A stretch of DNA of 64,000 nucleotides from an uncultured bacterium (GTDB lineage: Bacteria; Patescibacteriota; Minisyncoccia; Phycocordibacterales; PALSA-1337). Shown in pieces: positions 49 through 36,302 of the stretch (within the stretch, counting starts at the first letter, position 1; each line of letters begins with the position of its first letter). Below the pieces are notes generated by a model. That model ran no database searches. It was not told the DNA's origin and was given only the letters and a program-made list of their open reading frames with translations. The stretch lies in NCBI GenBank assembly GCA_903872035.1, contig CAIQIZ010000009.1, positions 7,299 through 71,298 of the forward strand, given 5' to 3'. The position numbers were made by a program, and so were the translations under genes.

Positions 49-570
49 CTAATGTGGATCATACCACGCCCCCTTTTTCCCTTGACTGGCGGTAATGTCA
101 TAGTAATGAGCGCCTTGCTGGAGTTTTAAAGGATCAAGGCTAATGATCTCCTTGTAGGTCTCATTCTTTATACATGGTGTCGCAGTATTGTAAATGGCCG
201 AGAGTGGATCGGAACGATAATCTATAGTAGCCGGAAATATGAGGACCACGGCATAGACATCTTTACAAAGCAAAGAGACAGAAATGGTTCCACCCTTTTT
301 GTATACGAATGACTTGAAAGTCGAGGGGGCTGGCATATTCTTCAAAGGAGAATATGCCGAATTCTCTGGAGCACTCGGAGCAAATACTGTCTCGGGAGAT
401 ACAGACGGGACTACCATAGGGGTATTGTTTTCGTTTGTTTTTGAAGAAGATGGACCTCGTAAAAATATGATGAATATGAATATAGCAATAAATGAAAGCA
501 GGAGCAGTGCAGTATTCGAACGAAGCAAAGCTGTGATTCGTGCTCTGTCAGATCTTTTATCGACTATCAT
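49..570 (-). CDS. hypothetical membrane-anchored protein (N-terminal TM helix, Pro/Ser-rich linker)
   Basis: ORF track; hydrophobic segment LLLLSFIAIFIFIIFL near N-terminus; no recognisable catalytic motif. Confidence 0.35.
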   Translation of the reverse strand: MIVDKRSDRARITALLRSNTALLLLSFIAIFIFIIFLRGPSSSKTNENNTPMVVPSVSPETVFAPSAPENSAYSPLKNMPAPSTFKSFVYKKGGTISVSLLCKDVYAVVLIFPATIDYRSDPLSAIYNTATPCIKNETYKEIISLDPLKLQQGAHYYDITASQGKKGAWYDPH

Positions 571-1118
571 ATTTTTTTGACTTTAAGCTCGACCAGGAAG
601 TCGGCGACGACATTCCAATAATGTTTGATGGCGAACTGCTTGGCTTCCTCCGATTTCTGATTCCACGGTTCATTGAAGAACAGGGCGTAATTGACCATAT
701 CAAAATCACATCTGATGAGTCGACTCTCTAGGCCATTGTCTTTGCGCCATATCTTGTTGAAGAATGGGAATGTTGCTTCAGAGATCGCACGTTTGGTGAA
801 CGGATCGGCCCAAGCGCGAACAGAAGTGTAATACGAAGAAATGATCGTTACTTTTGCGCCATCTTCAGCGATCCGCCACACCTCATCCATAAATGCGGAC
901 AGATCAACAACTCTTTCCATATAATGATTGATCACGATCTCTGAGGCGGAATTATCTGCGAATTGCGTCCAGGGGTAAGAGCCGAGATCGACGACTTCGT
1001 CGACGCCATCTCTCAACGCTTCATCGATACCGATAAATCCCGGGCCTTTGCTTTTGCCGCCGGCGATATCCAGTTTAAGGCCTTTGGCTCCCCTTTTAGT
1101 GAATGGGTTCATGTTCAT
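567..1118 (-). CDS. class I SAM-dependent methyltransferase-like protein
   Basis: Gly-rich motif-I-like LKLDIAGGKSKGPGFIGID followed by acidic residue; ATGA overlap with downstream gene. Confidence 0.4.
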   Translation of the reverse strand: MNMNPFTKRGAKGLKLDIAGGKSKGPGFIGIDEALRDGVDEVVDLGSYPWTQFADNSASEIVINHYMERVVDLSAFMDEVWRIAEDGAKVTIISSYYTSVRAWADPFTKRAISEATFPFFNKIWRKDNGLESRLIRCDFDMVNYALFFNEPWNQKSEEAKQFAIKHYWNVVADFLVELKVKKI

Positions 1119-1119
1119 G

Positions 1120-2109
1120 TCAGTTTTTCATGATAAAATCATATGCCGCTTTAGATGTCTCTCTCATAAAATCATCAGCTGTTTTTTGATCCCCGCCAAT
1201 GAACCCCAGGCAAAGCAGAGAATTTCTATGTGGCGCGTAGATGATACCGCAATCGGAATGAGTCTTGTCCGTGAGGTCGACGCCGAACTTATGTGCGACC
1301 GGTATATCCTTCGGAATTCCTGCCACTATCTCGTCGTTCTCGATCGAATCATCAAGATATCCCAAGATCAACTGCGAATCCGCCACATTGTCGTATGTCG
1401 CGTTATAAAGAGCGGTGAACATATTGGAAAGCGTTTTTAAATTTATCTTATTGTACGTCGGCATCGCGCCAAGATTGTCTACGCTCCAGCCCATGAAGCT
1501 ATAGACATCTCTAAATGGATCGCCGACACCTATGAGACGCGCCACTTTGATCAGAGCCTGCATGGCAGTATTATCTGAATTTTTAAGCATGATCTCTAGC
1601 AATTGTTGTAGAGAGAACGTCTTATTCGGACCGACTTTGTACAGATCACCGAAGTTGGAATCGAGATCGAGCTCGCTTAAGGTGTAGCTCTCTGAGAGCG
1701 AAAGTTGGCCGTTCTCGACCATCTTCATTATTGCCATCGCCAACGGCACTTTTAAAGTCGAGGCTGCGGTGAACATAGTATCTTCACCTATGCCGATAAA
1801 AGCAGAGTTGTTCAGATAAGCAAAATAGACATATGTTTTCTCTGGGAAACCTGCCTTTATACCCCTGAATTGATCCTCGAGCGGTTTGAAATTTATGATG
1901 AAATGCTTGCCGAGATTGGCAGTGACTACCGGATTGATGAGGGGGGCATCACCGACTGGACCCGACATTGTGCTGGTAGCACTGATCGGAGCGACGATAT
2001 AGGTCGCTCCCCGAGAAAGATTGGTTCGCACCACACGCACATAGGCGACGAACAATCCTGCTAGGAGGCAAATGAAAATGATCTGGATTATTATTATTTT
2101 TTTGCTCAT
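1120..2109 (-). CDS. membrane-anchored serine hydrolase, class A beta-lactamase/PBP-like fold
   Basis: N-terminal TM helix; S-T-L-K (SxxK), S-D-N and K-F-G motifs at class-A-like spacing (about 60 and about 107 residues). Confidence 0.55.
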   Translation of the reverse strand: MSKKIIIIQIIFICLLAGLFVAYVRVVRTNLSRGATYIVAPISATSTMSGPVGDAPLINPVVTANLGKHFIINFKPLEDQFRGIKAGFPEKTYVYFAYLNNSAFIGIGEDTMFTAASTLKVPLAMAIMKMVENGQLSLSESYTLSELDLDSNFGDLYKVGPNKTFSLQQLLEIMLKNSDNTAMQALIKVARLIGVGDPFRDVYSFMGWSVDNLGAMPTYNKINLKTLSNMFTALYNATYDNVADSQLILGYLDDSIENDEIVAGIPKDIPVAHKFGVDLTDKTHSDCGIIYAPHRNSLLCLGFIGGDQKTADDFMRETSKAAYDFIMKN

Positions 2110-2118
2110 GATATTTGG

Positions 2119-2853
2119 TTACCAGACGACTTCGCTCTGCGGATCGAGGTGACCGACCTTGACCCGGGTATCACATGCCACCTTGTAGCCGAGCTTGCGG
2201 ATCTTTGAGAAAAAATGCAGATCCTGTGTGCTCATCTGTGGCCCCTTTTCTTGGCTATATTCCTGGACGGTCTTGAACCAAGGCTTCCCTATCTTTGGGT
2301 CCCTGAATATATCCATCTTAAAGAGAGTGAATCCCATACCCAAACCATCGCACTCCTGGATATCTTTGGTCGGTGGTTGAGGACGAAAATGGAGATCGCC
2401 ATCTTTTCCCTCACCATATATCATCGGCTGACCTCCCTCGCCTTTCGTCCAATATAGACCGCCGACAGCGTCATATTTTTCTATATTTTCATATAGCTTC
2501 AATAGACCGTCTGGAGGAGGAAGATTGTCTTCTTCCATGGTCAAAATATATTTCCACTTTGAGAGCTCAGGGTTGGCAAGGATCTGCTCTATCATATTGT
2601 TATAAGCGTCACCCACTTCCATGCCGCCGGCAAAAACTTTTGTATTCTTTTGATTCATCGGCAACATCAGGCTCCACCACGAACCGACAACCTTGTAATT
2701 GATCATACCTCGTGTAGGAATGACGATGATGGTTGAAAGATCCTTATAAGTATTGCCTTTGATGATGCGGGCAGACTGCTCGACGAGATCGGCATTCTGC
2801 CCTTTCTGCTCGTCTCCGAGCGCGGAGATTTTTAGATTGCTTTGTTTTGTCAT
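2119..2853 (-). CDS. putative GT-A fold glycosyltransferase
   Basis: TIIVIPTRG N-terminal beta-strand typical of GT2-like Rossmann start, acidic EEDN patch; weak. Confidence 0.3.
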   Translation of the reverse strand: MTKQSNLKISALGDEQKGQNADLVEQSARIIKGNTYKDLSTIIVIPTRGMINYKVVGSWWSLMLPMNQKNTKVFAGGMEVGDAYNNMIEQILANPELSKWKYILTMEEDNLPPPDGLLKLYENIEKYDAVGGLYWTKGEGGQPMIYGEGKDGDLHFRPQPPTKDIQECDGLGMGFTLFKMDIFRDPKIGKPWFKTVQEYSQEKGPQMSTQDLHFFSKIRKLGYKVACDTRVKVGHLDPQSEVVW

Positions 2854-2869: not shown

Positions 2870-4381
2870 TTATTCGATGTTGGTGAACAATATCCACGGT
2901 TCGATGATACCAGCGGTAGTACCAGTCAACGAAGTTGCGTTTATCGAAGCTGGCATGGCCGCGCTTCCTACGGTGCCGATACCCAAGATCAATTGTTTCG
3001 AGGCGGCCGAGGCTACACCAACGTTACCCGAGAATGTCGGGGCAGAGACCGCATTGGTAGAACTGTTCGATAGGATCTTTTCGCCAGCTCCACCGTAAAG
3101 CGTGACGTTACCAGCGTTACCTGTAGCTATCCTCACCCCATACCAATAGTTTCCCGGCGTCGCATTCACGGTCATAGGAACAGATATCCTTCTGACACCA
3201 GCGAAAGAGGCCGAGGAAACAGAGGTCGTACCTGAAGAATACGTGTACGACGCCGATCCTGAAGAGACGGTGCTCAGTGTGCTGGCATTCATAGTGTATA
3301 TGAATATACTGACACTGAATGAAGCATTGCTGGAAGAAGACGGTATAGCGAAGCTTCCCAAGGCCATGACACGTGAGGCGGATAGGCTCTGCATGAGCGG
3401 CAGATAGCCGAAATACACCCCAGAAGTGACCAAGGCAGCGCTCGAAGCGATAGCCTGGCCCGGCGGCCACTGCAGATTGCTCAAAGTCGCACCGCCTGCC
3501 GCCGCACTGGCCGTGACTACTCCATTCGTGCTGATTCCAAATGAGACGTTGTTGGAGTTGCTAAAATTGATCGTACCTATAGTCACAGGTGCGGCATTGT
3601 TAGCGGTAACCGCAGCTATCGTTGTCGTACCTTGGATACCCAAACCAGCCAAGACACCATTTTCACAGATCAAAGCTTGAGATGATGCGACATTGGAGTC
3701 GTACCACATGATACCATTGGGTGAACATTGCTGGCCGACATAAGCGGCGGCATTCTGGTTATCCAGAGCAAAATATATAGGTGTGGCCTGTCCAGCACCT
3801 GTCCCGACTTGAACACGTCCGTTTACGGTGTCAGTTTTTAGATATGAACCATAGACATTATTAGCTGTCAAAGCATATGGCGACGAAAGGAGCTGTTGGC
3901 GCGGCGAGAGCGGTTCCCATCCTCCAGTACAGGTAGTCGGTGCATTGTTCACGGCTACTTGGAGATAGGCGATCGATGTGGTCGAGAAATCAAAGACGGT
4001 TGAAGTCAAAGTATCGGCCTGACCGATCACCGCGCTAAATACTCCATCGGTCGTAGTCGCTGTCGTCGTGGCTGGAGTCGATGCTGGCCAGAGTTTGTTT
4101 CCACCATTGGCAGAATCGTATATAGAAAACTGGTAGCAATACGAGGTGCCTGTGCCACCGAGGGCATTACCGGATGAATCTGTCAGGCGACCTTCATAGG
4201 CGATCTGCAATGGTGTTCCGGCTGCGGCTACGCTATTCTCCGGCCAGATCAAGTTGGCAGCTAGAGAAATGATCAGCACCACAGACAAAATCCCCTGAAT
4301 GAAAATGAGGCAGCCAGTGAAAATCGCGCTCGACTTTTTGGAGAATAGCAATCTTACTTTTCCGTCTTTTGATATCGACAT
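2870..4381 (-). CDS. secreted/anchored Thr/Ser/Ala/Gly-rich surface protein (S-layer or adhesin-like)
   Basis: N-terminal TM/signal anchor GCLIFIQGILSVVLIISLAANLIW; TTTATTTDG and long S/T/A/G-rich tracts; no enzymatic motifs. Confidence 0.5.
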   Translation of the reverse strand: MSISKDGKVRLLFSKKSSAIFTGCLIFIQGILSVVLIISLAANLIWPENSVAAAGTPLQIAYEGRLTDSSGNALGGTGTSYCYQFSIYDSANGGNKLWPASTPATTTATTTDGVFSAVIGQADTLTSTVFDFSTTSIAYLQVAVNNAPTTCTGGWEPLSPRQQLLSSPYALTANNVYGSYLKTDTVNGRVQVGTGAGQATPIYFALDNQNAAAYVGQQCSPNGIMWYDSNVASSQALICENGVLAGLGIQGTTTIAAVTANNAAPVTIGTINFSNSNNVSFGISTNGVVTASAAAGGATLSNLQWPPGQAIASSAALVTSGVYFGYLPLMQSLSASRVMALGSFAIPSSSSNASFSVSIFIYTMNASTLSTVSSGSASYTYSSGTTSVSSASFAGVRRISVPMTVNATPGNYWYGVRIATGNAGNVTLYGGAGEKILSNSSTNAVSAPTFSGNVGVASAASKQLILGIGTVGSAAMPASINATSLTGTTAGIIEPWILFTNIE

Positions 4382-4384
4382 ATG

Positions 4385-5008
4385 TTAAAAGCTCATCTGA
4401 TCGAGTGATCTATCGGCTGAGATGTATGACTCTTCAAATTCTTTTTGCAGGATCTCGCTTTTGGGCAAGCTGGATTCGTTCTTATGGAAATTTGCATGCA
4501 CGGCCAGCTCTATGGGCGAAATGTTCTTGAAAAAATACGTCTCTGTCCCCTTACCCTTTTCTTTCGCGAGAGTATATTGCCATCCAAAATCTTTGACATC
4601 CTCGATAGTCTCCGGTTTCAAGAATTTTGACATGATCGATCCCGTCGGGATCACCGAATCTACGCGATATATAATATCATAGTTCACGCCTCGAGCGATC
4701 GGGAAAGATTTTGGGTAAAGCGACTGAACGACTCTGGTCATCTCTTGACCGAGCTTGGAAACGTCAGGCGCGCGAAATGTTTTATCCTCGAGTCGGATAT
4801 GCGACGGGTTAAAAACCCACATCAGACCCTGTGACGGAAATTCGAAGATGCGTGTAGCTGTCGATGTATTATCTGAATACAAAGAGCCCTTTGAGGCTTC
4901 TCCTGGATAGGCTGAAAAGACCGCCGCAGGATCAGGCAAGATCAGAGAATTTTCTGCGAAAGCGAAAACTATATTTGACCTCTGCATATGTTTGGCAGTT
5001 ATTTTCAT
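4385..5008 (-). CDS. hypothetical soluble protein
   Basis: ORF track; sits between the two surface-protein genes in same operon. Confidence 0.35.
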   Translation of the reverse strand: MKITAKHMQRSNIVFAFAENSLILPDPAAVFSAYPGEASKGSLYSDNTSTATRIFEFPSQGLMWVFNPSHIRLEDKTFRAPDVSKLGQEMTRVVQSLYPKSFPIARGVNYDIIYRVDSVIPTGSIMSKFLKPETIEDVKDFGWQYTLAKEKGKGTETYFFKNISPIELAVHANFHKNESSLPKSEILQKEFEESYISADRSLDQMSF

Positions 5009-5011
5009 GTT

Positions 5012-6769
5012 CTATTGGATTATAGTTTCCGTTGTTGAAGTGGCTATCACGGTGATAGGAAATATCTGACTGACAGGCGTCCACCCTCCAGTGTCATCTT
5101 CTTCCGCAGTCAATAACCAGTATTTTCCACCGTCTATGGTCTGTGACAGATTCGACAGGTCATAATGGAACGAGCCTTGATTGCATTCTAGAGCATTATT
5201 GACTACATATGAAGACGGTTTCTTTTTATAATCCGACTGGTCGCGATATGCGAGAATGACGAAATATTTTCTGGAACAGTTTCCAGAAACAACGAGAGAT
5301 GACCCGATCAAGTTCGGCGAGACTTTTATATTTGAATTCTGATTATATGATTTATCGACTACCGGATCGCCGCCCAAGACAAACGAAACGACTTTTTTTG
5401 TGATAACAGCTGGTGTTGGAGGCGGGGGCTTAATGACGACAGTAGGAGTCGGGGTCGGAGGCGAAGGCGGGGTTGGATCGATTACTGAATATACCGCATC
5501 TGCGGCCGAGGCTAGAGTATCTGACAAGGCTTCTTTCAAAGTCCGATCGTAGCTGACTTTAGCATACATCCCATCCAGATATATATCAGGTTTTTCATCT
5601 AGAGTCGGCAAAGTTGACACCATTATCTGTAGATTATTTAGGTCTTCCCATGAGGAGATCGGTACCGCGATCTTGTAATCCTTCCAGTTGTCCAAACCTA
5701 CCGTGCCTATGCTTACCCATCTCACCCCATCTGTGCTGTAGCTTATTTGAAGGAATGGATTTGATGAGCGTGACGGGTCATCTGTCTCTGCTTCGGCTAT
5801 AGCAGCAAATTTCGTCATGATATTCTCGATGAAGCTCGTTGGACCGGAGTTGACGGTAGAATCTCCCGGAGAAGTTGGCGGAGCTGTCACAGGTGCGGGT
5901 GGTGGAGTATCAGTCGTAGGAGGTAAAGCCGGCGGTGGCGGAGGCGGAGGTGATGATGTGTCAGGAGCAGATGAGGATGGAGGGGAAGATGTATCAGGAG
6001 GAGGCGGCACTTGGCCCGATCCTGTTGATGGGCTAGCGTTTGTAGATGCATCAACATTGCTCGATGTCGAACTTGTAGCAGGACTTGTCGTAGAAGAGGT
6101 GCTTTGAATATTCGGGGTAACAGATGTCGTTGTTGAAGATATGGATGAAGATGATTGGGTCGTGCTTGTACCAAGAGAATTATTTCCCGTGGAAGAAACA
6201 GACGTTGTAGACGTCGTGGTCGACAAGATCATAGGATTATTCGATGAAGATAGGTTGCTTGCCGATGTTGAGGATGAACTGTCCAAGACCATCTTAAGTG
6301 GCGTATAAATCGGTGATGAGGCTCTAAATGCCGGAGATGAACTTGCTTGCAAGGCATTAGTTGTCGATGCGACTGTTGTTGACGCAACGGTATTCCGAGC
6401 CGACATCAAGGAACCTTGACCGATCAACCATTGGAATTGCACAACGACAGCTGTCGGCGGATTCGTAGATTGATCTGTGGAAAAATATCCACAAAATATC
6501 TGGGCAGCAACGGAAGATGCTAGAAATGCAGAATTATATGTAGTATATGAAGATGGTGGATCAGATATCGAAAGGTCCGGTTGCCCGCTGGCATTCTTTG
6601 GATTGCTCCAGCCGCCGAGACAGAAGCTTGGATAAAAAATGGTGCTGGCCGCTCGAACGGAGCGCGGATTTGAGATGATTTTACCAGTCAACAACGCGAT
6701 GAAAACGATTACAATACCAATCAAGGAATATGATACGGTTAAGATGGTATATCGTGTAATTCTCTTCAT
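5012..6769 (-). CDS. mucin-like Ser/Thr/Pro-rich cell-surface protein
   Basis: N-terminal TM anchor; about 150-aa S/T-rich tract followed by PPPPPPPALPPTTDTPPPAPVTAPPTSP proline-rich linker and a C-terminal globular domain. Confidence 0.5.
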   Translation of the reverse strand: MKRITRYTILTVSYSLIGIVIVFIALLTGKIISNPRSVRAASTIFYPSFCLGGWSNPKNASGQPDLSISDPPSSYTTYNSAFLASSVAAQIFCGYFSTDQSTNPPTAVVVQFQWLIGQGSLMSARNTVASTTVASTTNALQASSSPAFRASSPIYTPLKMVLDSSSSTSASNLSSSNNPMILSTTTSTTSVSSTGNNSLGTSTTQSSSSISSTTTSVTPNIQSTSSTTSPATSSTSSNVDASTNASPSTGSGQVPPPPDTSSPPSSSAPDTSSPPPPPPPALPPTTDTPPPAPVTAPPTSPGDSTVNSGPTSFIENIMTKFAAIAEAETDDPSRSSNPFLQISYSTDGVRWVSIGTVGLDNWKDYKIAVPISSWEDLNNLQIMVSTLPTLDEKPDIYLDGMYAKVSYDRTLKEALSDTLASAADAVYSVIDPTPPSPPTPTPTVVIKPPPPTPAVITKKVVSFVLGGDPVVDKSYNQNSNIKVSPNLIGSSLVVSGNCSRKYFVILAYRDQSDYKKKPSSYVVNNALECNQGSFHYDLSNLSQTIDGGKYWLLTAEEDDTGGWTPVSQIFPITVIATSTTETIIQ

Positions 6770-6860
6770 AATATATATAATATCAAAAATACCAACGATG
6801 ATACATGTGTACGAACTATTATATCAATAAAATCTCGCCTGCCCTAATTTACGGATCCGA

Positions 6861-6894
6861 GTATTTCAAAACGCAAAACAGCCCGAGGGGCTGC
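6861..6894 (-). terminator. rho-independent terminator (minus strand)
   Basis: GCAGCCC-CUC-GGGCUG hairpin followed on minus strand by UUUUGCGUUUUG. Confidence 0.5.
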
Positions 6895-7034
6895 TTTGTG
6901 AGACATTTCTTGGAGAGTGCCCACACTGGGTACTCATAGGCAAGATATTAACACAATTTACGTTGTGAGGCAATGCGAGTTATTCCGACAAGCGAAGAGC
7001 GTGTAAATGTGAGCATTTACAACGTCTGAGCGCT

Positions 7035-7217: not shown

Positions 7218-9515
7218 CTATTTGCCGCTCTGCACTTGCTTAATGGCCGCATCGATCTGATCTTTGAGCTCAGGATGCAACTTCTGGAGGGCTTGCAAAG
7301 TCTTGACCGCAGCTGATTTTTGACCAGACACATATTGGAGCTGGGCCAATTGTCCTTGCAGATTGATATCTGACGGGCTGCTCGAGGCCAAGTTGGTATA
7401 TATGGCGATAGCCTTGCTATATTCCTTCCTTGAAGAATAGACACTGGCCATCTGTTGCGAACCAAAGATGACTGGGTCATTACCAAAGAGCTTATGAGCT
7501 TCTGTTTCTTTGCCATCCAAAACCAAAGTGATAGCGTAGGCATTTTTGGCTTGCGCGTAATCCGGAGCAGACTCATAAGCTTGTTTCAGCAGCGCTTCGG
7601 CCTCCGCCGCTTTGCCAGAATTGATGTATGCATTCGCTAGTTCGAAATCCAACGTCTGTTTGGCCGGTGAGAGCTCATGACCCTTTTCCAAAAGTTCCAA
7701 AGCTGGAACATATTGACCGATACTGTTGTAGAAGGCTCCACCTAGAACATAAGCGCGGGCATCTTTGGGCGTAGCAGCCACCTGAGCTTGGATCTCTTTG
7801 CTGGCTAGAGTAAAGAATGCCTGCTTGGTCGGTCCGGCTACCTGCTGACTGGCAATGACGCTACCAGCACAAGACATGACTTGCTCGCGAATCTCCTGGT
7901 TAGCTAGGTAGACATTTACATTCAAAGCACTCTGAAAGGCCGCGGTGTCTAGGTTCTGACCGCCACAAGTCTGTAAAGCAGTGATGAGACGGCTATTGGC
8001 TTCGATCGGTCGGATATTGTAGAAGTAGACCGCACCGATCAAAAGAACGATCGCTATAGGTGCCACGATATATTCGACAGCATCCATTCTAGTCGGCTCT
8101 GTGCCGAACCAATTCAGAGATTGCCAGCGGGACGCACCAACATTCCCTACCGAAGGATTTGAACCGATGGGGACAGTCGCCCCGACCAAAGATTTTGTAT
8201 CTGCTTTTGGCAATGAATTCGCGAATCCCAGAGCCGCGAAGAACAAGACGTAGCTGGCCAAGTTATCGAAGACGAATACATTGTGAACAAAGTAGCCAGC
8301 GAGCAATCCTGTGAGGACGCTCTTTTCGAGGATGCCAAGCGAAGACTTCCAAACGGCCACAAGAAAAAGAACGTATAAGGCGAGATATGCCATCAATCCG
8401 ACGATTCCAGAATCGACTAACCAGTCGAGGAAGACGTTGTGAGCGCGGTCGAACCATTGCTCTTGGGCATACATGGCCGGATTGTAATCGGCATTGAATA
8501 TATAGTTGAAATTCTCTTGACCCCAACCGAACAATGGACGATGCATAGCGCCGTTTATCGCCATCGGCCAAATGAACTGGCGGGCCTGATTGGAAGCTTC
8601 ATACCAAGAAAGATTGGAGAACCTTCCGAGGATCGGGTTTGTTGTGATGGATGGATTGTGGCGATTGGCCCAAAATACCAAACCTAGGAGCACGATGAGA
8701 GCGATGATCCCTCCAGATATCCATCGTCTTTTCTTCGATTCTCCCTTGCCAAAAAATGCGTAGATGGCGCAAGCCAGCATGATACCGCCTATCAAGCCTA
8801 GGATGGTACCGCGAGTTTGAGTCTCCAAAATAATGAACCCGAAGAGCACAGCAAGAACTGCATAGACCCATTGCAAGGATCCGGCATACAGCATCTTCTT
8901 GGCGCGAGCCACGAAGAACATATAAGCCGCGATGAAACCGCTGAGCAACATGTATATGGCCATATAAGCAGAGTTACCAAGAGATGCATCCAAACGCGTC
9001 GCCCCTTGGTGAGTCGGAGTCCAACCGAGGAATTGAGCGATGCCGTATAGAGCGACGATGAAAGCGATGAGCAATGAGGCATTGAACCAACGATGCCATG
9101 ATCTTTGACCATTCTCCGTAGAGACTCCCCCGCTGCGGAGATCCATGGGACCGAAGAGGCTGGTAGTGACGATATAGAAAGCCCAGAGATGGATGATGAC
9201 GATCCAACCTTCCATGCGCTCGAAGTTAGACCAGAGGCTACGGAGCGGATTGACACCGAGAAGATCGGCGATGAGAGCGATCAGGGCAAATAGAGTCACT
9301 CCGATAGTAAGCGGTGAGATTCGTGGTCGGTATTTTGGTTCGATGAAAGCCAAAATTGCCCAGGCGGCAAAGGCTATCTCCACTAGGATCCTAAAATAAA
9401 AAGCTTTTCCAGTGATGAATGGGAAGAAAAATGAATTGGTGACGATCAGAGGAAAGATCGGGATCAGGAACAAAGCGGCAATGGCAACATACTGGGCGAT
9501 TTTTTTTATAGGCAT
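7218..9515 (-). CDS. O-antigen ligase/Wzy_C-family polytopic membrane protein with C-terminal TPR repeat domain
   Basis: about 12 predicted TM segments in N-terminal 450 aa; C-terminal about 250 aa with repeated TPR-like A-x-x-Y/L patterns (e.g. AKNAYAITLVLDGKETEAHKLF). Confidence 0.6.
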   Translation of the reverse strand: MPIKKIAQYVAIAALFLIPIFPLIVTNSFFFPFITGKAFYFRILVEIAFAAWAILAFIEPKYRPRISPLTIGVTLFALIALIADLLGVNPLRSLWSNFERMEGWIVIIHLWAFYIVTTSLFGPMDLRSGGVSTENGQRSWHRWFNASLLIAFIVALYGIAQFLGWTPTHQGATRLDASLGNSAYMAIYMLLSGFIAAYMFFVARAKKMLYAGSLQWVYAVLAVLFGFIILETQTRGTILGLIGGIMLACAIYAFFGKGESKKRRWISGGIIALIVLLGLVFWANRHNPSITTNPILGRFSNLSWYEASNQARQFIWPMAINGAMHRPLFGWGQENFNYIFNADYNPAMYAQEQWFDRAHNVFLDWLVDSGIVGLMAYLALYVLFLVAVWKSSLGILEKSVLTGLLAGYFVHNVFVFDNLASYVLFFAALGFANSLPKADTKSLVGATVPIGSNPSVGNVGASRWQSLNWFGTEPTRMDAVEYIVAPIAIVLLIGAVYFYNIRPIEANSRLITALQTCGGQNLDTAAFQSALNVNVYLANQEIREQVMSCAGSVIASQQVAGPTKQAFFTLASKEIQAQVAATPKDARAYVLGGAFYNSIGQYVPALELLEKGHELSPAKQTLDFELANAYINSGKAAEAEALLKQAYESAPDYAQAKNAYAITLVLDGKETEAHKLFGNDPVIFGSQQMASVYSSRKEYSKAIAIYTNLASSSPSDINLQGQLAQLQYVSGQKSAAVKTLQALQKLHPELKDQIDAAIKQVQSGK

Positions 9516-18566: not shown

Positions 18567-20024
18567 ATGACCAAAATGACAAAAAGTCAAAAGATACTTA
18601 TGATCTTGCTGTTCGCAATGACGGTGTTCTTTGCGCTGTTCCATCTGACCGAAAGCCCGGCATTCAACTCTGATGAAGGGTGGTATATGCAAAGCGCGAA
18701 CAACTTGCTGACGACCGGCATGAACGGTTTGCAGCTGGCTCCAGGCTACATCGATCGAGCATCGACATACACAAGCGTAGGTTATCCGTTGATATACATG
18801 CTGGCTCTCTGCTACAAGCTCATCGGCGTGGGCATACTTCAAGCACGATTGCTTATGGTCTTCTTTCTGCTGGCGTTTACAGTGATCAGCTTTTTGCTTG
18901 TTCGCCGACTATCTGGCAATGGACTAGCCCTCATGTCGCTTCTATTGATCTCCACATTTCCTCCTTTGTACGGAAACGGAAAAGCCGTAATGGGAGAAAT
19001 GCCAGGCCTCTTCTTTATGGTCCTAACGTTATATCTCTTCAACCTAATCACCGTATACCCTTCACGCAAAACTCTATTATTGATCCTTACCGGCATCTCT
19101 GCGGGAATATTCATGGCCACCAAGGTCTCCTTCATATTGTTTGCACCAGCGCTCATTGTCGCAGCGATCATCGAATGGCGGCGAGGTCATTTGTCCCTCA
19201 AAGACATAGGCCTGACGGCTTTAAGCATCGTGGCTCCCCTTGCCGTGTGGTTACTTATCAAGTTCCTGCCCGGAGAATCTATCTCGACCATACTCGGTTT
19301 TTATGCCAACCCTTCGCGCGTCAACGATATCACCGGCACCGTGTTACGAAATATTAAGACCCTTTTCTCTGATACAAGCACGATATACACGATGTCCATG
19401 TTGGTGATCTGGGCAAGCGCGCTATGGGTCCGTTTCTACAGAAAGATGAGGATAAGTGCTGAAGAGACAGCAGCTTTCATCTTGGCAACGCTGACAATAG
19501 CCTCCTTCACACGCACGGCCGGTTTTTATCGCTATCTATTACCAGCTCAGATGGTGGCTCTCATCTTTTTCCCAGGAGCCTTACTAACCATCTTTGAGAC
19601 GATTTCAAAAAAGATCACGACAGCCAAAAGTGTCGCAGCCAATTGGGTAGTAATGGCTATATTGGGCGTACTCGGCTTGTATCAGCTCTGCTTCCATTCA
19701 TACGTAGCCGATTCTTATCGGAGCCATGCTGTCGCGGACATGCAGGCATATTTTGACTCCATCCCAGCAACAACCACCATGTTTTTCTATAACAGCCAAG
19801 GCTTGGTACCGTTTTTCCATGGAAAGAACTACTTCCAATATCTCATCCTGTTCAACAAGGAAGACTGGACCATCGGCAGTGAAAACCTACCTATCCTAGC
19901 CGCCGGAAAAGCAGACATGGTCGTTGCTGGCCCGCACTCACTGAAGGATGACGCAGCCGCAATATTCGAGAAATATGTCGTTGTCCATTCATTTGGAAAG
20001 ATCGACATCATGAAGCATCGTTGA
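18567..20024 (+). CDS. GT-C polytopic glycosyltransferase (ArnT/PMT GT39/GT83-like), paralogue A1
   Basis: about 11 TM; first-loop ESPAFNSDEGWY DE motif; 485 aa, clear paralogue of 22168-23625. Confidence 0.6.
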   Translation: MTKMTKSQKILMILLFAMTVFFALFHLTESPAFNSDEGWYMQSANNLLTTGMNGLQLAPGYIDRASTYTSVGYPLIYMLALCYKLIGVGILQARLLMVFFLLAFTVISFLLVRRLSGNGLALMSLLLISTFPPLYGNGKAVMGEMPGLFFMVLTLYLFNLITVYPSRKTLLLILTGISAGIFMATKVSFILFAPALIVAAIIEWRRGHLSLKDIGLTALSIVAPLAVWLLIKFLPGESISTILGFYANPSRVNDITGTVLRNIKTLFSDTSTIYTMSMLVIWASALWVRFYRKMRISAEETAAFILATLTIASFTRTAGFYRYLLPAQMVALIFFPGALLTIFETISKKITTAKSVAANWVVMAILGVLGLYQLCFHSYVADSYRSHAVADMQAYFDSIPATTTMFFYNSQGLVPFFHGKNYFQYLILFNKEDWTIGSENLPILAAGKADMVVAGPHSLKDDAAAIFEKYVVVHSFGKIDIMKHR

Positions 20025-20034
20025 CACCAATCGT

Positions 20035-21624
20035 ATGCTATCATCTACCGCCATGAACCAAAACTCCAAGACTGCGTTTTCAAAGGAACAGTTCTCTACC
20101 CTGTATCCTAATGGAGTAGGAACGCACTACTGGTATTCAGCACGCAATATGATCATCGCCGATACCCTGCTTAAACTGTCTCCGAAAGGCGTATTGGAGG
20201 TAGGCGCTGGTGCGGGTACAGTGTCTTCGTATCTCAAAAAGAGAAATTTTTCGATTTGGTGCGTGGAACCGGCCCCGGTCTACCCTCCACCTGACCTTAA
20301 AAACGTATTTTTCGCGGGTATGAAAACCAGCGACTTGCCCATCGAAGTTCGGGAAAAGATCGATACCGCTCTGGTCTTGGACGTGCTCGAACATGTCCCA
20401 GAGCCGCAAAAACTGATCTCCGAAATAGAGAAAAGTCTACCGAATCTCCGCAACATAGTTATAACTGTGCCAGCGCGTCAAGAGCTTTGGAATAATTTTG
20501 ACGAATTCAATGGTCACTTCTTGCGCTATGATCGCCGAAGAGTGACTCAAACCTTCCAAGAGCTTGGCTGGAAACCATTATCCTGCGCTTATTGTTTCCA
20601 CATTCTCTATTGGCCAGCTCTCTTATTCGCCAAGCTTGGTTTAAAACGCTCAGTCGTAGTGGCCACACCAATCGGTTTTTCAACCGTTCTGCACAGATTG
20701 ATGGCTAAGTTGTTCTATCTGGACAAAAAAATCTTCCCGAGCGCCATGGTCGGAAGTTCCATTATCTCCGTATTCAACAAATCTTCAGAAACACAGCCTG
20801 CACCCACCATCACAAATAGATGGAAGATCAAACTCCCCTACGGATCAATCATAAGAAAGCTGCCAAAGATAGAACTGGCTTCGGCTGACGGCAAGCATTT
20901 TCTTATCAAGAATAATATATTCTACCGAATCGGTTTTTCTGTTCTGGGAATCCCCCATTTGAGCTGGAGATCGCGATCACGGATCATCATGAAAGAGATG
21001 AGGTCAGTCCCACTTTCCGCCAAGATCCTGGATGCCGGCTGCGGCTACGGCATATATTCGCTCATGCTCGGTGAGATTGGATTTACAGTAGACGCCGTGG
21101 ACGTAGACCCGATAAGGATAGAGGAACTGACGTCTTCTCTGAAGTCTCTGAAAAAGGCGCATGCCCACGTGACCCCGGCCGTGGCGTCCCTCACCAAGCT
21201 TCACTTCGCGGATGATGCATATGACTTGGTCATCTGTCCGGAAGTCATAGAGCATATCGCGGACGATATGGCGGCCCTCGGGGAGCTGGCACGAGTGACC
21301 AAGCCCGGCGGAAAGCTTATCCTTACCGTACCTCATTGGTCGCCATTCAACCTCAGCTTTTACAAGAAATTCGAACATGAGCGGCCAGGATATCACTATG
21401 ATGAACTTGCCAAAACATTGAAAGGACTCGGACTTGAGCCGGAAAAAGTCTTTTTCTACGAATATGACTTTGGAACGAAGATATTCATATTCTACAACTC
21501 ATTGAATTCCAAGATCCTTATGGGCTTGGCCTTCTATCCTTGTTTCCTTCTCCAGCGACTGGACAATATCCTGAAGCGTGGGACGCCGAATTATCTGGCA
21601 GTGGTGGCAGTGAAAAGACAGTGA
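20035..21624 (+). CDS. tandem-domain SAM-dependent methyltransferase
   Basis: two motif-I boxes: VLEVGAGAGTVSSYL and ILDAGCGYGIYSLML, second followed by DLVICPEVIEHI and PGGKLILTVPH. Confidence 0.55.
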   Translation: MLSSTAMNQNSKTAFSKEQFSTLYPNGVGTHYWYSARNMIIADTLLKLSPKGVLEVGAGAGTVSSYLKKRNFSIWCVEPAPVYPPPDLKNVFFAGMKTSDLPIEVREKIDTALVLDVLEHVPEPQKLISEIEKSLPNLRNIVITVPARQELWNNFDEFNGHFLRYDRRRVTQTFQELGWKPLSCAYCFHILYWPALLFAKLGLKRSVVVATPIGFSTVLHRLMAKLFYLDKKIFPSAMVGSSIISVFNKSSETQPAPTITNRWKIKLPYGSIIRKLPKIELASADGKHFLIKNNIFYRIGFSVLGIPHLSWRSRSRIIMKEMRSVPLSAKILDAGCGYGIYSLMLGEIGFTVDAVDVDPIRIEELTSSLKSLKKAHAHVTPAVASLTKLHFADDAYDLVICPEVIEHIADDMAALGELARVTKPGGKLILTVPHWSPFNLSFYKKFEHERPGYHYDELAKTLKGLGLEPEKVFFYEYDFGTKIFIFYNSLNSKILMGLAFYPCFLLQRLDNILKRGTPNYLAVVAVKRQ

Positions 21625-21673
21625 TACGTCCAGGATATTCGAACTAATCAAATAAATTTATCTAGAAGATAGA

Positions 21674-22120
21674 TCACCGTCCAAGAACTGGAAGCGCGAC
21701 ATCATTCGGAGTCGCGTTAAATTGAGTATTTTGTATGGCCCAAAGATTCCCAAAGACCACCGAGTAGAGGACAGCGGTCACGATCATAACCAAGATGATC
21801 TCTGCGATAAAACAAGTGATGTAGATCTTGAGGGATTTGAGCCACGGGGTCTGATAATACTTCTTGTAGAAAAGATATAACACTACAAAACCAAGGACAA
21901 AATCTAATATATAAAATAGATTAGCTATCGAATGTGAATGGCCAGCGATAAGATTTCCTATACCGTTCGTGATGACGTTGACGACGATGAGCGAGAGCGT
22001 CACGAACATAGATCTTATGAATGTCGCTTGCGTTATCTTAAACAGCTTTGTGATCCAGAACAATATCGCTGAACCTAGCAAAGACATAGCAATTAACGTA
22101 AGTATGACTAGGATGGTCAT
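21674..22120 (-). CDS. small polytopic membrane protein (4 TM), unknown function
   Basis: ORF track; four hydrophobic helices. Confidence 0.35.
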   Translation of the reverse strand: MTILVILTLIAMSLLGSAILFWITKLFKITQATFIRSMFVTLSLIVVNVITNGIGNLIAGHSHSIANLFYILDFVLGFVVLYLFYKKYYQTPWLKSLKIYITCFIAEIILVMIVTAVLYSVVFGNLWAIQNTQFNATPNDVALPVLGR

Positions 22121-22167
22121 GAATAATTATTAAATTGATACATGAACATTTTACCACAGATTCAAGA

Positions 22168-23625
22168 TCACTTCTTCTTTTTAAAGAGGATATCGTACTT
22201 ATAAGGCGTGGTCGTGGCGTCATAAAGCTTGAAAAGCGGATCATCCGACTTATACCCTTCCGCTACTATGATGATACGGTCTACTTTCCCGGCCTTTATC
22301 TGCTCCAAACCGAGAGCGCCGATCGGACCAGCCGCAGGTGTGAGATATTGATAATAATCATCGCCATGGATGAAAGGCACGACTTCGGGAGTATTGTAGA
22401 AAAACACAGAAGTGCGTGGATCAAGATGAGCGAAATAATCTTCCCAGTAAGCGGTCTTGTGGCTGTGATATGTATCCGACACCCAGGAATGAAAAGCGCA
22501 TTGGTAAAGACCGAGGAACGCCAAGATACCGAGAAGCACAGGAACGGCCTTGCGAGCAGAAGGACTTAAATTCACCTTCACCGAAATTGTCTGCAGGAAT
22601 AGGTTCAGCGAATAAGGAAAGAATATCAAAGCCAGGATCTGCGCAGGAAAAAGATATCGATAGAAACCGGCCGTGCGCAAGAAAGCCCCGATGATCAAGA
22701 TAGAGAAAATAAAAGAGATGATCTCCTCTGCTGGAACGGCTTTTTTAGCACGTTGCCGGAGCCAAAGGCCGACAGCCCAAACTGCCATGATAAGCAAAGT
22801 ATAGAGAGTGCTCGGATCTTTGAACATTCCTGTAAAATTTCTGATCACCGTAGCGACCAGGTTCTTCTCATGATAAGGATTGGCATAATAAGTCAGAATG
22901 CCTGACAACGAGTCCGAACCGCCGAATTGGATGAGAAGCCAAAGAATTATCGGCACCAGCGTAAAAACTGCACACAAAAAGATATCTTTCCAATCAATAC
23001 GCTTTCTCCTTAACTCTATAAGCAAACCGATAGCGACGGCCGGAAGCATTATGAGAAATTCCGGCTTTGTGGCGACGCAAAGGCCCAGAGCCAGTCCAGA
23101 GAGAAGCAAAAATAATTTCCTACGGGAAGGACGGCCAAGCGCTAAATTCAAAAAAATCAGGCATAGCAAAAGATAGAACATGCCAGGAACCTCTCCGAGC
23201 ACGCTCTTACCATTCGCAAAGAGAGGAGGAAAGGTTGCCAGAAGCGCGACGGCCCCAAGAGCCATCCATGGCCCGTAGAGACGCTTGGCCAAAAAATATG
23301 CGGCGATGATAAGACCAAGGATGAAAAGCGCCATGAGCGAACGTGCCGAGAGAATCCCTGTGCCAAATATCCGCATCCATAATGCCATCGGATACAATAG
23401 CGGATATCCGACCGTGGTCACAGCCAGATGAGTTACAACACCTGGAGTAAGCTGTAAACCGTCGGCTCCACGAACTGCAATATTGGCGGCATCTTGAACA
23501 TACCAACCTTCGTCATACCAGACGGACGGGCTTTCCGACAGCTTATATAACGAGAAAAAGACGGCGACTACCGCGGCCGTGAGGAGAAGAATCTTTCGCA
23601 GGTTATCGATCTTGCTCGACTCCAT
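22168..23625 (-). CDS. GT-C polytopic glycosyltransferase (ArnT/PMT-like), paralogue A2
   Basis: ESPSVWYDEGWY DE motif; same length and collinear similarity to 18567-20024 but opposite strand. Confidence 0.6.
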   Translation of the reverse strand: MESSKIDNLRKILLLTAAVVAVFFSLYKLSESPSVWYDEGWYVQDAANIAVRGADGLQLTPGVVTHLAVTTVGYPLLYPMALWMRIFGTGILSARSLMALFILGLIIAAYFLAKRLYGPWMALGAVALLATFPPLFANGKSVLGEVPGMFYLLLCLIFLNLALGRPSRRKLFLLLSGLALGLCVATKPEFLIMLPAVAIGLLIELRRKRIDWKDIFLCAVFTLVPIILWLLIQFGGSDSLSGILTYYANPYHEKNLVATVIRNFTGMFKDPSTLYTLLIMAVWAVGLWLRQRAKKAVPAEEIISFIFSILIIGAFLRTAGFYRYLFPAQILALIFFPYSLNLFLQTISVKVNLSPSARKAVPVLLGILAFLGLYQCAFHSWVSDTYHSHKTAYWEDYFAHLDPRTSVFFYNTPEVVPFIHGDDYYQYLTPAAGPIGALGLEQIKAGKVDRIIIVAEGYKSDDPLFKLYDATTTPYKYDILFKKKK

Positions 23626-24553
23626 GAGTAGAAGAAATTATGTAGAGCGGCCGTCCTTTCGATTCGGCGAAGATGCGACCGATATACTCACCTAGGATAC
23701 CCAACATGATGAATTGAATGCCGCCAACAAAGAGAATGGCGACGACAATGAATGACCAGCCAGGCACAGCGGCCACCGGAAAGAATATGCGGACGACGAC
23801 AGCGTAGATTATTCCGAGGACGCTCACTCCAGCGACGAACAAACCAAATTTGGTCATGAACCGGAGCGGTGCGGTCGAGAAAGAGAAAACGGCATCCATA
23901 GAAAGCCCGAGCATCTTGCGGAAGGGATAATGCGTCTCCCCGGCTCTACGCGAATCGCGGTCGAATGGAACAGCCTTCTGTTTGAAACCGATATGGGCCG
24001 AGATGCCGCGCATATAACGATGCACTTCCCTGTATCTTTTCATGACATCGGCTGCCCGGCGATCGAACAACCTGAAATCGCCGGCATTCTCGGGAATAGG
24101 ATAATCGGAAAGCTTGGCCATGATCTTGTAGAACATCCCGGCGGTCAAGCGCTTCCAGAAACCATCTTTACGCGTGGCTCTCACTGCATAGACGACCTCA
24201 TTACCTTGTTCCCATTCTCTGATAAGGTCGAGCGCCGTCTTCGGAGGATCCTGGAGATCGGTATCCATGACGATGACAGCATCTCCTTTGGCATGATCGA
24301 TACCGGCAGTGATGGCTAATTGATGGCCGAAGTTGCGTGCGAACTCGATGATCTTTATGCGCTGATCCTTGGCCGCGAGCTGTTTCAGTATTTGAATGGT
24401 GCCGTCCCTGGAACCATCATTGATAAAAAGAAATTCTAATCCGTAGCGACCATCGAGAGGTTTTGTGGTCGAAGATAAAACGCCGTAAAATTCTTTCAGA
24501 ACTTTCTCTTCGTTGTAGACCGGCAAGACAAAACTGATCGTTTTCTGGGCCAT
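23603..24553 (-). CDS. polyprenyl-phosphate hexose synthase, GT2 (DPM1/GtrB/ArnC-like)
   Basis: ISFVLPVYNEE, FINDGSRDGT, VIVMDTDLQDPP; two C-terminal TM helices. Confidence 0.7.
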   Translation of the reverse strand: MAQKTISFVLPVYNEEKVLKEFYGVLSSTTKPLDGRYGLEFLFINDGSRDGTIQILKQLAAKDQRIKIIEFARNFGHQLAITAGIDHAKGDAVIVMDTDLQDPPKTALDLIREWEQGNEVVYAVRATRKDGFWKRLTAGMFYKIMAKLSDYPIPENAGDFRLFDRRAADVMKRYREVHRYMRGISAHIGFKQKAVPFDRDSRRAGETHYPFRKMLGLSMDAVFSFSTAPLRFMTKFGLFVAGVSVLGIIYAVVVRIFFPVAAVPGWSFIVVAILFVGGIQFIMLGILGEYIGRIFAESKGRPLYIISSTHGVEQDR

Positions 24554-24647
24554 AATATTTGGTATGGTAGCAGATTATCCCAAATTTGACACTGGTGTTT
24601 TGAATATACGGAAAAGTACGGATTCGGACAATCACAACAACACCCGA

Positions 24648-27652: not shown

Positions 27653-28074
27653 AGCTGTACAGTAACCGTCCTATCACGAAAAATCAACTTGTTGTATACG
27701 AAATAATTCACCACGGCGATAGCGGCGCTGACGATGATCTGGGAAATAATATAATGGATATGGAGCATCGAGACGAGGAGATAAACAGCGTATGTATTGA
27801 CGATCAGAGAAACGACGGCGACGAACAAATATATGAATCCTTGCTTATGGATCTTGTCCATGGAATTGTCGCGGAATGTCCAGAATTTTTGTAGACCAAA
27901 GCTAACTCCAAAAGCGATTATGAAAGCCAGAACAACCGATATGACATACCAAATGTGCACGAAGTCTGTAAATATGTAAAGTAATGCCAAGTCGGTGAAA
28001 GCGGCCGTACCTCCCGCGATCAGATATCTCGCGATCTTGGCGTGCTTCTTTATTTGGTTGATGATGATTTCCAT
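27649..28074 (-). CDS. GtrA-family small membrane protein (polyprenyl-P-sugar translocation-associated)
   Basis: 4 TM, YLIAGGTAAFTDLALLYIF and QKFWTFRD typical of GtrA. Confidence 0.6.
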   Translation of the reverse strand: MEIIINQIKKHAKIARYLIAGGTAAFTDLALLYIFTDFVHIWYVISVVLAFIIAFGVSFGLQKFWTFRDNSMDKIHKQGFIYLFVAVVSLIVNTYAVYLLVSMLHIHYIISQIIVSAAIAVVNYFVYNKLIFRDRTVTVQL

Positions 28075-31539: not shown

Positions 31540-31555
31540 AAGAGACAGTCTAGCA

Positions 31556-32491: not shown

Positions 32492-32500
32492 GAATTGATT

Positions 32501-33415: not shown

Positions 33416-33429
33416 CTGTATATTTAAGA

Positions 33430-34584: not shown

Positions 34585-34623
34585 GAGATAGATGCAATGG
34601 ATAAATCGCCTCGCAGCTTCCTA

Positions 34624-36300: not shown

Positions 36301-36302
36301 AT

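Follow-up and report, generated by a model that had tools for sequence, protein, structure and literature searches.

Mosaic adhesive fibres and glycosylated Ser/Thr-rich spacers are already known kinds of surface structure. The MAT fibres of Bdellovibrio bacteriovorus combine an invariant, cell-proximal N-terminal domain with variable, exchangeable tips (PMC10769870). In streptococci, extracytoplasmic Ser/Thr-rich intrinsically disordered regions (IDRs) are O-glycosylated by pairs of GT-A and GT-C glycosyltransferases (GTs), with the acceptor genes dispersed and the glycans protecting from proteolysis (PMC12041528). Type IV pili and adhesins have been studied in Saccharibacteria (PMC10633639, PMC11665869). 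Here we describe a locus in a 64,000-nucleotide (nt) stretch of DNA from an uncultured patescibacterium (contig CAIQIZ010000009.1; the whole stretch is referred to as the window), in which open reading frames (ORFs) of the interval 2870–6769 define three tightly packed minus-strand genes, A, B and C, with 3-nt gaps. These are the opening genes of a seven-gene operon, A-B-C-D-Bla-E-F, which runs on the minus strand from position 6769 down to 49. We lean towards reading the operon as a conserved, undescribed cell-surface module of Parcubacteria-type Patescibacteria, forming a fibre or adhesin, and not as an appendage of the glycan locus beside it. A previous, sequence-only reading of the interval had seen A and C as mucin-like candidate acceptors of a protein O-glycosylation system encoded by that locus. 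The genes of the operon are:

5012–6769, minus strand: gene A, 585 residues, exported multi-domain protein, the operon's first gene
4385–5008, minus strand: gene B, 207 residues, cytoplasmic, predicted TATA-binding-protein (TBP)-like pseudo-dimeric α/β fold
2870–4381, minus strand: gene C, 503 residues, membrane-anchored, phage-tail-fibre-like mosaic protein
2119–2853, minus strand: gene D, 244 residues, cytoplasmic, minimal GT-A-fold glycosyltransferase-like enzyme
1120–2109, minus strand: gene Bla, 329 residues, penicillin-binding protein (PBP)- or class-A-β-lactamase-like serine enzyme with a hydrophobic N terminus
567–1118, minus strand: gene E, 183 residues, class-I methyltransferase-like protein
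49–570, minus strand: gene F, 173 residues, N-terminal hydrophobic anchor, P/S-rich linker and two-Cys β domain

The operon is conserved across species as a unit. By tblastn, the window was compared with 80 loci taken from GTDB species genomes and with the surroundings of distant C homologues; 41 loci of other species, 692 kb in all, retain the order A-B-C-D-Bla-E-F. The genes on its 5′ side vary among loci, and include FtsEX, a phosphoketolase (XFP) with an epimerase, and ribosomal protein L19. Co-occurrence with GT-C genes, proposed in the sequence-only reading as a check, failed at the level of the locus: in none of the 41 orthologous loci did tblastn detect, within ±10 kb of the operon, a homologue of Wzm, of a GT2 synthase or of any GT-C of the window. 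As GT-C families diverge fast, a homology-independent screen was added for polytopic proteins, defined as ORFs of at least 300 residues with at least seven hydrophobic segments; in the window the screen picks up each of the five GT-Cs as well as the Wzy protein. Run on the 692 kb of orthologous loci, it yielded three proteins, two Nramp transporters and one Wzy_C protein, the latter reflecting a Wzy_C gene near the operon in one of the 41 other loci.

In the window itself, gene A is preceded by a gene for a Wzy_C/TPR protein, described below with the glycan locus. The gap between the two genes is 448 nt long and contains both a terminator-like hairpin and a promoter-like site:

6874–6898, minus strand: terminator-like hairpin and U-run, between the Wzy_C/TPR gene and gene A
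6798–6827, minus strand: promoter-like site TTGATA-18-TATCAT, 29 nt 5′ of the start codon of gene A, a consensus match only

The hairpin has an RNA folding energy of −16.9 kcal/mol (z −3.9), and none of 200 shuffled sequences was equally stable. From these signals the operon and the glycan locus are predicted to be separate transcription units. The synteny of the operon elsewhere without GT-C, Wzm or GT2 genes, together with the hairpin and promoter-like site here, therefore indicates that the surface genes form a conserved operon of their own. Only in this lineage does that operon lie next to the glycan locus, and the gene neighbourhood is no evidence for a glycosylation link.

Gene C encodes a membrane-anchored, folded, phage-fibre-like mosaic protein, of which the N-terminal half is conserved and the tip is exchanged between lineages. 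It is composed of three parts:

4247–4327, minus strand: residues 19–45, N-terminal transmembrane helix (hydropathy and AlphaFold2 model)
3491–4234, minus strand: residues 50–297, conserved base and stalk, with a β-sandwich at residues 55–166 and invariant C82, C151, C219 and C239
2873–3490, minus strand: residues 298–503, exchangeable C-terminal tip, with a β-sandwich at residues ~320–430 and predicted local distance difference test (pLDDT) scores mostly of 60–90

About 70 homologues of C were collected, and 379 are present in GTDB species genomes, nearly all labelled Patescibacteria. In their alignment the N-terminal half is highly conserved and the C-terminal half is full of substitutions and indels, with a mean pairwise identity of 0.60 for the N-terminal half and 0.26 for the tip; the identities of the two halves are nearly uncorrelated (Spearman 0.11). 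Incongruent pairs are found in both directions, some sharing 93% of the N-terminal half and 22% of the tip, others 55% and 72%, respectively. The same mosaicism is evident for C of the window, whose closest relatives by N-terminal half (65–74% identity) bear tips of 19–26% identity, and whose best-matching tips (41–42%) are attached to N-terminal halves just 40–51% identical.

The AlphaFold2 model of the C monomer (mean pLDDT of 66.6) comprises the transmembrane helix (residues 19–45), a confident β-sandwich (residues 55–166, pLDDT ~90) and a second β-sandwich (residues ~320–430). At E ≤ 1e-3 the model has 82 matches among predicted viral structural proteins, which include tail fibres, tip attachment protein J, collagen-repeat fibres and minor tail proteins, and its best structural matches in the Protein Data Bank (PDB) are phage parts, including fibre, needle and minor tail proteins. 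In composition C is rich in Ser, Thr, Ala, Gly and Asn, with few charged residues. It thus has in common with the receptor-binding tail and central fibres of phages a β-rich, Ser/Thr/Gly/Asn/Ala-rich make-up of low charge and a conserved proximal part bearing a swapped distal tip; unlike them, it is chromosomal and membrane-anchored, and no phage genes appear in those of its flanks with precomputed Pfam annotation. A Pfam search of C found no domain, S74 or other. The transmembrane helix of the family carries a conserved Glu or Gln at mid-helix, which is unusual in a simple anchor.

Together with A, C stands out from the 52 genes of the window in Ser+Thr content (29% overall for A and 24% for C, with a median of 11.6%; best 40-residue window 72% and 55%, with a median over the 52 genes of 24%), and both had been described as mucin-like. 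For C this description does not hold: its Ser/Thr-rich part (residues ~348–388) lies inside a confidently modelled β-domain of a folded family, and it has no long low-complexity tract.

The domain formed by residues 50–170 of C (positions 3872–4234) is without a Pfam model. Its closest named relative is the N-terminal domain of MAT fibres, residues 51–154 matching the NCBIfam model NF053851 (Bdello_MAT_N) with 31.2 bits (E 1.7e-7; cut-off 60 bits). An exhaustive search with the domain returned 3,661 cluster representatives (50% identity); among the best 150, which are proteins of 150–4,548 residues, all but 3 have it begin by residue ~70. It appears to be a ‘base’ domain in widespread use among surface fibres. 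MAT fibres and C both combine a conserved N-terminal proximal domain with an exchangeable tip and are phage-fibre-like, and the bacteria that carry them live, presumably so in the case of C, on or in other bacteria. They differ in that MAT fibres are about 850–1150 residues long, occur as a 21-member paralogue repertoire and have an intertwined trimeric β-prism stalk, whereas C is about 500 residues long, anchored by a transmembrane helix, encoded in single copy within a seven-gene operon and modelled here as a monomer. As a prospective member of the MAT family, C has the variable tip on a conserved base but stays below the NF053851 cut-off (31.2 against 60 bits).

Gene A encodes an exported protein in which conserved domains alternate with variable linkers:

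6650–6769, minus strand: residues 1–40, signal peptide or hydrophobic segment, ending in a conserved A-x-A (VRA, followed by AST; hydropathy and alignment)
6416–6649, minus strand: residues 41–118, conserved N domain with P47, C50, G52, W54 and C93; ‘CLGGWxNP ... IFCGYF’
5780–6415, minus strand: residues 119–330, hypervariable spacer consisting of a Ser/Thr tract, poly-Pro and then a short hydrophobic ‘AIAEAE’ (A-x-A-like) segment
5510–5779, minus strand: residues 331–420, conserved middle domain ‘SYSxDGxxW ... IYLDG’ with invariant D347, G348 and W351; alignment occupancy 0.99
5396–5509, minus strand: residues 421–458, second Pro-rich linker (PTPPSPPTPTPT...KPPPPTP) by composition, variable in the alignment
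5015–5395, minus strand: residues 459–585, C-terminal two-Cys β domain with invariant C498 and C529, which has a paralogue in F

Residue A40 is almost invariant and the A-x-A pattern is present throughout the alignment of A homologues; signal-peptide cleavage would be expected after this motif. With this signal peptide in A and the N-terminal transmembrane helix in C, the export signals that the sequence-only reading called for are present in both proteins. The N domain contains two conserved Cys and a GGW motif, and neither Pfam nor NCBIfam returned a match to A. The C-terminal domain of A aligns with that of F (hhalign of the family alignments, probability 99.4, E 5e-22), and F is an anchored copy of it.

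The long Ser/Thr tract and poly-Pro stretch noted earlier in an exported protein are confirmed for A. Between residues ~121 and 300 the tract contains 37–67% Ser+Thr per 30-residue block, followed by 27–50% Pro (PPPPPPPALPPTTDTPPPAPVTAPPTSP); a second Pro-rich stretch lies at residues 430–455. Across homologues the spacer has an alignment occupancy of 0.13–0.8, and its Ser/Thr/Pro-rich part spans 0–180 residues. It is Ser/Thr/Pro-rich in 18 of 29 homologues, and the remaining 11 have no Ser/Thr/Pro-rich segment, some of them carrying P/E-rich or G/D/S-rich spacers. No tandem DNA repeats were found within the Ser/Thr tract. Composition and indels indicate that the spacer is probably disordered, and the ‘mucin-like’ tract is best described as a fast-evolving spacer between predicted folded domains, the Ser/Thr character of which is not conserved.

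After the variable spacer, at residues 313–329 (~5783–5833; alignment columns ~560–580), a short hydrophobic stretch ends in a signal-peptidase-like A-x-A and acidic motif (the A-x-A at residues ~323–327), variants of which occur in nearly all A homologues (AIAEAE, VHAEE, AHAQE and ALAQE). This internal motif could be a processing site or a docking strand.

Gene callers split A, and an artefactual 585-residue ORF was considered and ruled out: 29 distinct homologues have the conserved N- and C-terminal blocks in one uninterrupted ORF of 463–686 residues. Public gene calls (ENA, JGI and Logan) shorten A to its last 203 or 268 codons (locus L001 7613–9370), and spurious antisense ORFs of 55 and 96 residues are called inside its Ser/Thr/Pro tract in public annotation. 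A protein-database search with residues 320–585 of A retrieved only four entries, all of them truncated gene calls. The A family is largely invisible in protein databases because public gene calls truncate A at the low-complexity tract.

The products of the remaining genes are smaller. Gene B, which lies inside the interval and was passed over in the sequence-only reading, has 42 homologues and no transmembrane segment by hydropathy; its sequence has no match in Pfam, NCBIfam or the PDB. Its AlphaFold2 model (pLDDT of 93.4, predicted template modelling score of 0.86) shows a two-repeat α/β fold, for which the sole PDB match below 1e-3 is a TBP-like chain (8ffz_H, template modelling (TM)-score of 0.43), functionally uninformative. 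The profile of D matches PDB 2c0n_A (molecule name A197), a GT-A protein of solved structure, at E 2.7e-5; A197 is a glycosyltransferase of the virus STIV. The D family has an invariant E107-x-D109 and an identity across loci of 37–79%, and 16 of 33 members give a weak, sub-threshold match to Pfam GT2. With both GT-A similarity and an acidic DXD-type motif, D is probably an A197-like GT-A glycosyltransferase-like enzyme, and as such a further candidate glycosyltransferase, within the operon itself, that the sequence-only reading did not include.

Bla matches Pfam Beta-lactamase2 (E 3e-33), and its invariant residues are S117-x-x-K120, S178-D179 (N180 is nearly invariant) and H273-K274-x-G276. 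As it scores far below every NCBIfam β-lactamase cut-off, it is no named β-lactamase; the S-x-x-K, S-D-N and K-T/S-G motifs are all intact, as in a PBP- or class-A-like serine enzyme, to which we provisionally assign it. The alignment of E has a mean column identity of 74% and includes a ‘KLDIACG’ motif. The E protein of the window has no match in Pfam or NCBIfam, so its methyltransferase-like assignment rests on the reading of this motif; the orthologue at locus L005 has a faint precomputed match to Methyltransf_11.

A, C and F bear N-terminal signal or anchor sequences, and the three proteins would leave the cytoplasm through Sec and be exposed on the membrane's outer face. C would be anchored by its transmembrane helix, with the base and stalk (residues 50–297) proximal to the cell, and its tip (residues 298–503), swapped like the receptor-binding tip of a phage, would contact a ligand carried by another cell, be it partner or host, or by a surface. 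The spacer of A may serve as an extended stalk through the wall, and is the one plausible acceptor of O-glycans. The two-Cys, immunoglobulin-like domain shared by A and F may dock these proteins to each other or to the wall, and D, E and B, together with membrane-anchored Bla, might modify, assemble or wall-attach the exported proteins. Given the lifestyle described in PMC11665869, the most likely external ligand of the C tip and the A spacer would be the envelope of a partner or host cell. In its fullest form, the operon would on its own suffice to build a host-recognition fibre, modify it and fix it to the wall, with D glycosylating, E methylating, Bla performing a transpeptidase-like attachment and the C tip setting the partner; we regard this elaboration as rather doubtful.

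On the far side of the 448-nt gap is the glycan locus, in which two features are relevant here:

7218–9515, minus strand: Wzy_C (O-antigen-ligase-like) and TPR protein, 765 residues, outside the operon (Pfam Wzy_C E 5e-24, and TPR)
18567–36369, no strand assigned: span of the five GT-C-like genes and two of the three GT2 synthase-like genes, outside the operon; the third GT2 is at 39677–40618

The five GT-C-like proteins (18567–20024, 22168–23625, 25976–27652, 29908–31539 and 34624–36369) are polytopic, and all have a D-E directly after the first transmembrane segment (TM1), in agreement with the DE motifs first noticed in them. The paralogous pairs noted at the same time are also present, two in number, with 42% and 34% identity. 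In Pfam, three match PMT_2, one weakly matches GT22 and one has no match; none matches MIR, PMT_4TMC or YfhO. The PF02366 match of 25976–27652 is marginal (23.7 bits, cut-off 22.7, over 142 residues), and its best NCBIfam match is ArnT (E 0.004). A phmmer search with 18567–20024 and 25976–27652 against solved structures gave no relevant matches. Membership of a PMT_2-type family does not separate lipid, polysaccharide and protein acceptors.

The sequence-only reading counted two DPM1-like synthases; three such GT2s are present, two of them PgfS/ArnC-like, at 23603–24553 (best NCBIfam match PgfS with 276 bits, cut-off 500; ArnC 169 bits) and 39677–40618 (ArnC 199 bits), and one AglJ-like, at 24648–25979. 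PgfS is the GT2 of the protein O-glycosylation system of Streptococcus mutans. By family-level similarity the three GT2s resemble polyprenol-phosphate-sugar synthases, and two of them overlap GT-C genes (23603–24553 with 22168–23625, and 24648–25979 with 25976–27652). GT2 and GT-C pairs of this type produce and consume polyprenol-phosphate sugars.

The remainder of the locus (9589–47000) encodes Wzm/Wzt with a Wzt_C domain, FkbM-type and other S-adenosylmethionine (SAM)-dependent methyltransferases, a B12/radical-SAM enzyme, an asparagine-synthase-like amidotransferase, an LPG_synthase_TM protein and about nine GT4s, in addition to the three GT2s and five GT-Cs. With the Wzy_C/TPR gene, this amounts to a full ATP-binding cassette (ABC)-transporter-type (Wzm/Wzt and Wzy_C) glycan pathway. 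Its product appears to be a methyl-modified polymer that depends on the ABC transporter, with side-chain decoration taking place outside the cytoplasm. The organism carrying the ligase-like Wzy_C/TPR protein is presumably without lipopolysaccharide. PDB matches of this protein are to TPR structures only, such as OGT, and are uninformative as to a WaaL-type or PglL-type role. It was considered as a dedicated O-oligosaccharyltransferase for A and rejected, the two genes being separated by the hairpin and a Wzy_C gene lying near the operon in only one of the 41 other loci. The surface genes had been placed ‘just upstream’ of the glycosylation locus; the two regions are adjacent, but the nearest GT-C starts 11.8 kb from A, beyond the Wzy_C/TPR gene, the hairpin, the promoter-like site, a divergent Wzm/Wzt operon and several methyltransferase genes.

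Described glycosylation systems share features with A and its surroundings to differing degrees. As in the streptococcal IDR system (GtrB or PgfS with PgtC2 or PgfM1; PMC12041528, PMC5856776), an extracytoplasmic Ser/Thr tract occurs beside folded domains, and PgfS/GtrB-like GT2s are encoded along with GT-C enzymes; the streptococcal GT-C is of YfhO type and modifies a C-terminal tail, whereas here the GT-Cs are of PMT_2 type and the tract is an internal spacer, with a Ser/Thr richness that orthologues do not keep. The actinobacterial and eukaryotic systems of Ppm1 (DPM1) and PMT (GT39) likewise comprise a polyprenol-phosphate-sugar synthase, GT-Cs with an acidic loop-1 motif and a Ser/Thr/Pro-rich exported protein. 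The synthase and, in A, a candidate exported acceptor have counterparts here, but a PMT with MIR or PMT_4TMC does not, and unlike in GT39 systems no conserved link joins surface proteins and enzymes (41 orthologous loci). Serine-rich repeat adhesins (SRRPs) resemble the locus in having a Ser-rich surface protein encoded beside a glycosyltransferase; tandem repeats and a C-terminal LPXTG are absent here, as are accessory Sec and GtfA/B from the annotated genes of the window.

These comparisons bear on the possibility that A, and perhaps C, are acceptors of O-glycosylation by the neighbouring GT2 synthases and PMT_2-type GT-Cs at the membrane's outer face. We consider this unlikely as an explanation of what the genes are and of their position here; it rivals the surface-module reading on those two questions only, and for the spacer of A the two are compatible. 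A does carry a signal for export and, ahead of poly-Pro, a Ser/Thr tract of ~180 residues, the five GT-C-like proteins have the D-E after TM1, the GT2s are PgfS-, ArnC- or AglJ-like and overlap GT-Cs in pairs, and in streptococci such Ser/Thr IDRs are modified by GtrB or PgfS with a GT-C (PMC12041528). As the streptococcal acceptor genes are scattered in the genome, lack of linkage does not refute glycosylation. Nevertheless, GT-C, Wzm and DPM1-like genes are absent from the 10 kb around each of the 41 orthologous operons, the transcription units appear separate, Ser/Thr richness is missing from the spacer in 11 of 29 homologues and C is folded. The GT-Cs, moreover, are of PMT_2 type, neither YfhO-type nor clear GT39, with one marginal for PF02366, and the Wzm/Wzt and Wzy_C polysaccharide pathway, complete in the same locus, offers an equally good acceptor for side-chain decoration by the GT2s and GT-Cs. 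Nothing found in this analysis ties the five GT-Cs to the surface proteins. The earlier proposal that both surface proteins are plausible acceptors thus stands for the exported Ser/Thr/Pro tract of A, whereas C is no obvious acceptor; the glycosylation hypothesis is narrowed to a single tract in A, for which it is plausible.

For the operon as a whole, the main rival is an envelope-biogenesis or division module, in which Bla would remodel peptidoglycan, D and E would make or modify a wall glycopolymer, and A, C and F would be structural wall or S-layer-like proteins. This we consider distinctly improbable, although it accounts for a catalytically intact PBP/class-A-like enzyme fixed in the operon, for FtsE/FtsX directly 5′ in about seven loci, for MurB and SecA following the operon's neighbour here and Mur ligases in the window, and for D and E being the most conserved members, as expected of housekeeping enzymes. 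Tip swapping in C and the hypervariable regions of C and of the A spacer typify proteins that face a variable external ligand rather than housekeeping wall proteins; the 5′ neighbours differ between species, and C resembles phage fibre proteins. That resemblance could also mean that C, perhaps with A, is a prophage tail-fibre remnant, its Ser/Thr richness being the composition of phage fibres, as the structural matches to fibre, needle and minor tail proteins would allow. The same chromosomal gene order in 41 species, the absence of phage genes from those operon flanks that bear precomputed Pfam annotation, the N-terminal transmembrane helix of C and the cellular enzymes encoded alongside it make a phage origin of this kind highly improbable. 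Several observations nonetheless weigh against a surface fibre or adhesin. Residues 170–300 of C are poorly modelled (pLDDT below 50–60), and the model depicts a monomer rather than a trimeric fibre; the structural matches score low (TM-score ≤0.30, query-normalized), and the similarity to MAT_N, apparently at the level of the domain, is below the NCBIfam cut-off. The localization, oligomeric state and binding of the operon proteins are predictions, and the roles given to B, D, E and Bla are guesses. A cell-wall or division role is hinted at by FtsEX beside the operon in several loci, and by MurB and Mur ligases near the operon here.

Hardly any of the abundant Parcubacteria-type Patescibacteria are in culture. 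Their presumed way of life is attachment to other microbes, and we know of no described mechanism by which they recognize their partners. A single-copy, syntenic operon encoding an anchored fibre with lineage-swapped tips is a concrete candidate for partner recognition. If the operon does build a recognition fibre, the C tip would set which partner cell these episymbionts bind, and C tip types could help to predict host ranges from metagenomes. We found no description of the operon in the searchable literature, nor any paper joining the Candidate Phyla Radiation, O-antigen ligase and glycosylation. What seems new is the fixed set of seven genes, along with its occurrence across Parcubacteria-type Patescibacteria.

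Beyond the operon, several features of its surroundings were observed. An FtsE-type ABC ATPase is encoded ~3.5–6 kb 5′ of C in about seven species (L003, L006, L009, L010, L013 and L014), and at locus L003 an FtsX gene follows FtsE and abuts the operon. Past the left end of the window (L001 14362–17151) is a gene for a 929-residue DUF2341 and Laminin_G_3 protein, followed by MurB and SecA. Downstream of the operon in other species are unannotated genes for proteins of 300–540 residues, some with weak matches to Cohesin, fn3 or WxL, so the island of surface proteins may extend beyond these seven genes. Mur ligases occur within the window.

Adjoining the glycan locus at 48180–50108 is a type IV secretion coupling-protein-like gene (TrwB_AAD_bind, T4SS-DNA_transf and TraG-D_C); a type IV secretion system of Patescibacteria that is akin to monoderm conjugation systems is known (PMC12102498). 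Between it and a tetrapyrrole-methylase-family gene is a DUF4015 putative glycosyl hydrolase (50626–51882, E 5e-92). The window has ~47% G+C; it contains no tRNA genes, and an Rfam scan of its whole length found no RNA families. Relatives of its proteins are labelled almost exclusively Patescibacteria or Parcubacteria, and its first 12 kb are 99.97–99.99% identical to two freshwater-lake metagenome contigs.

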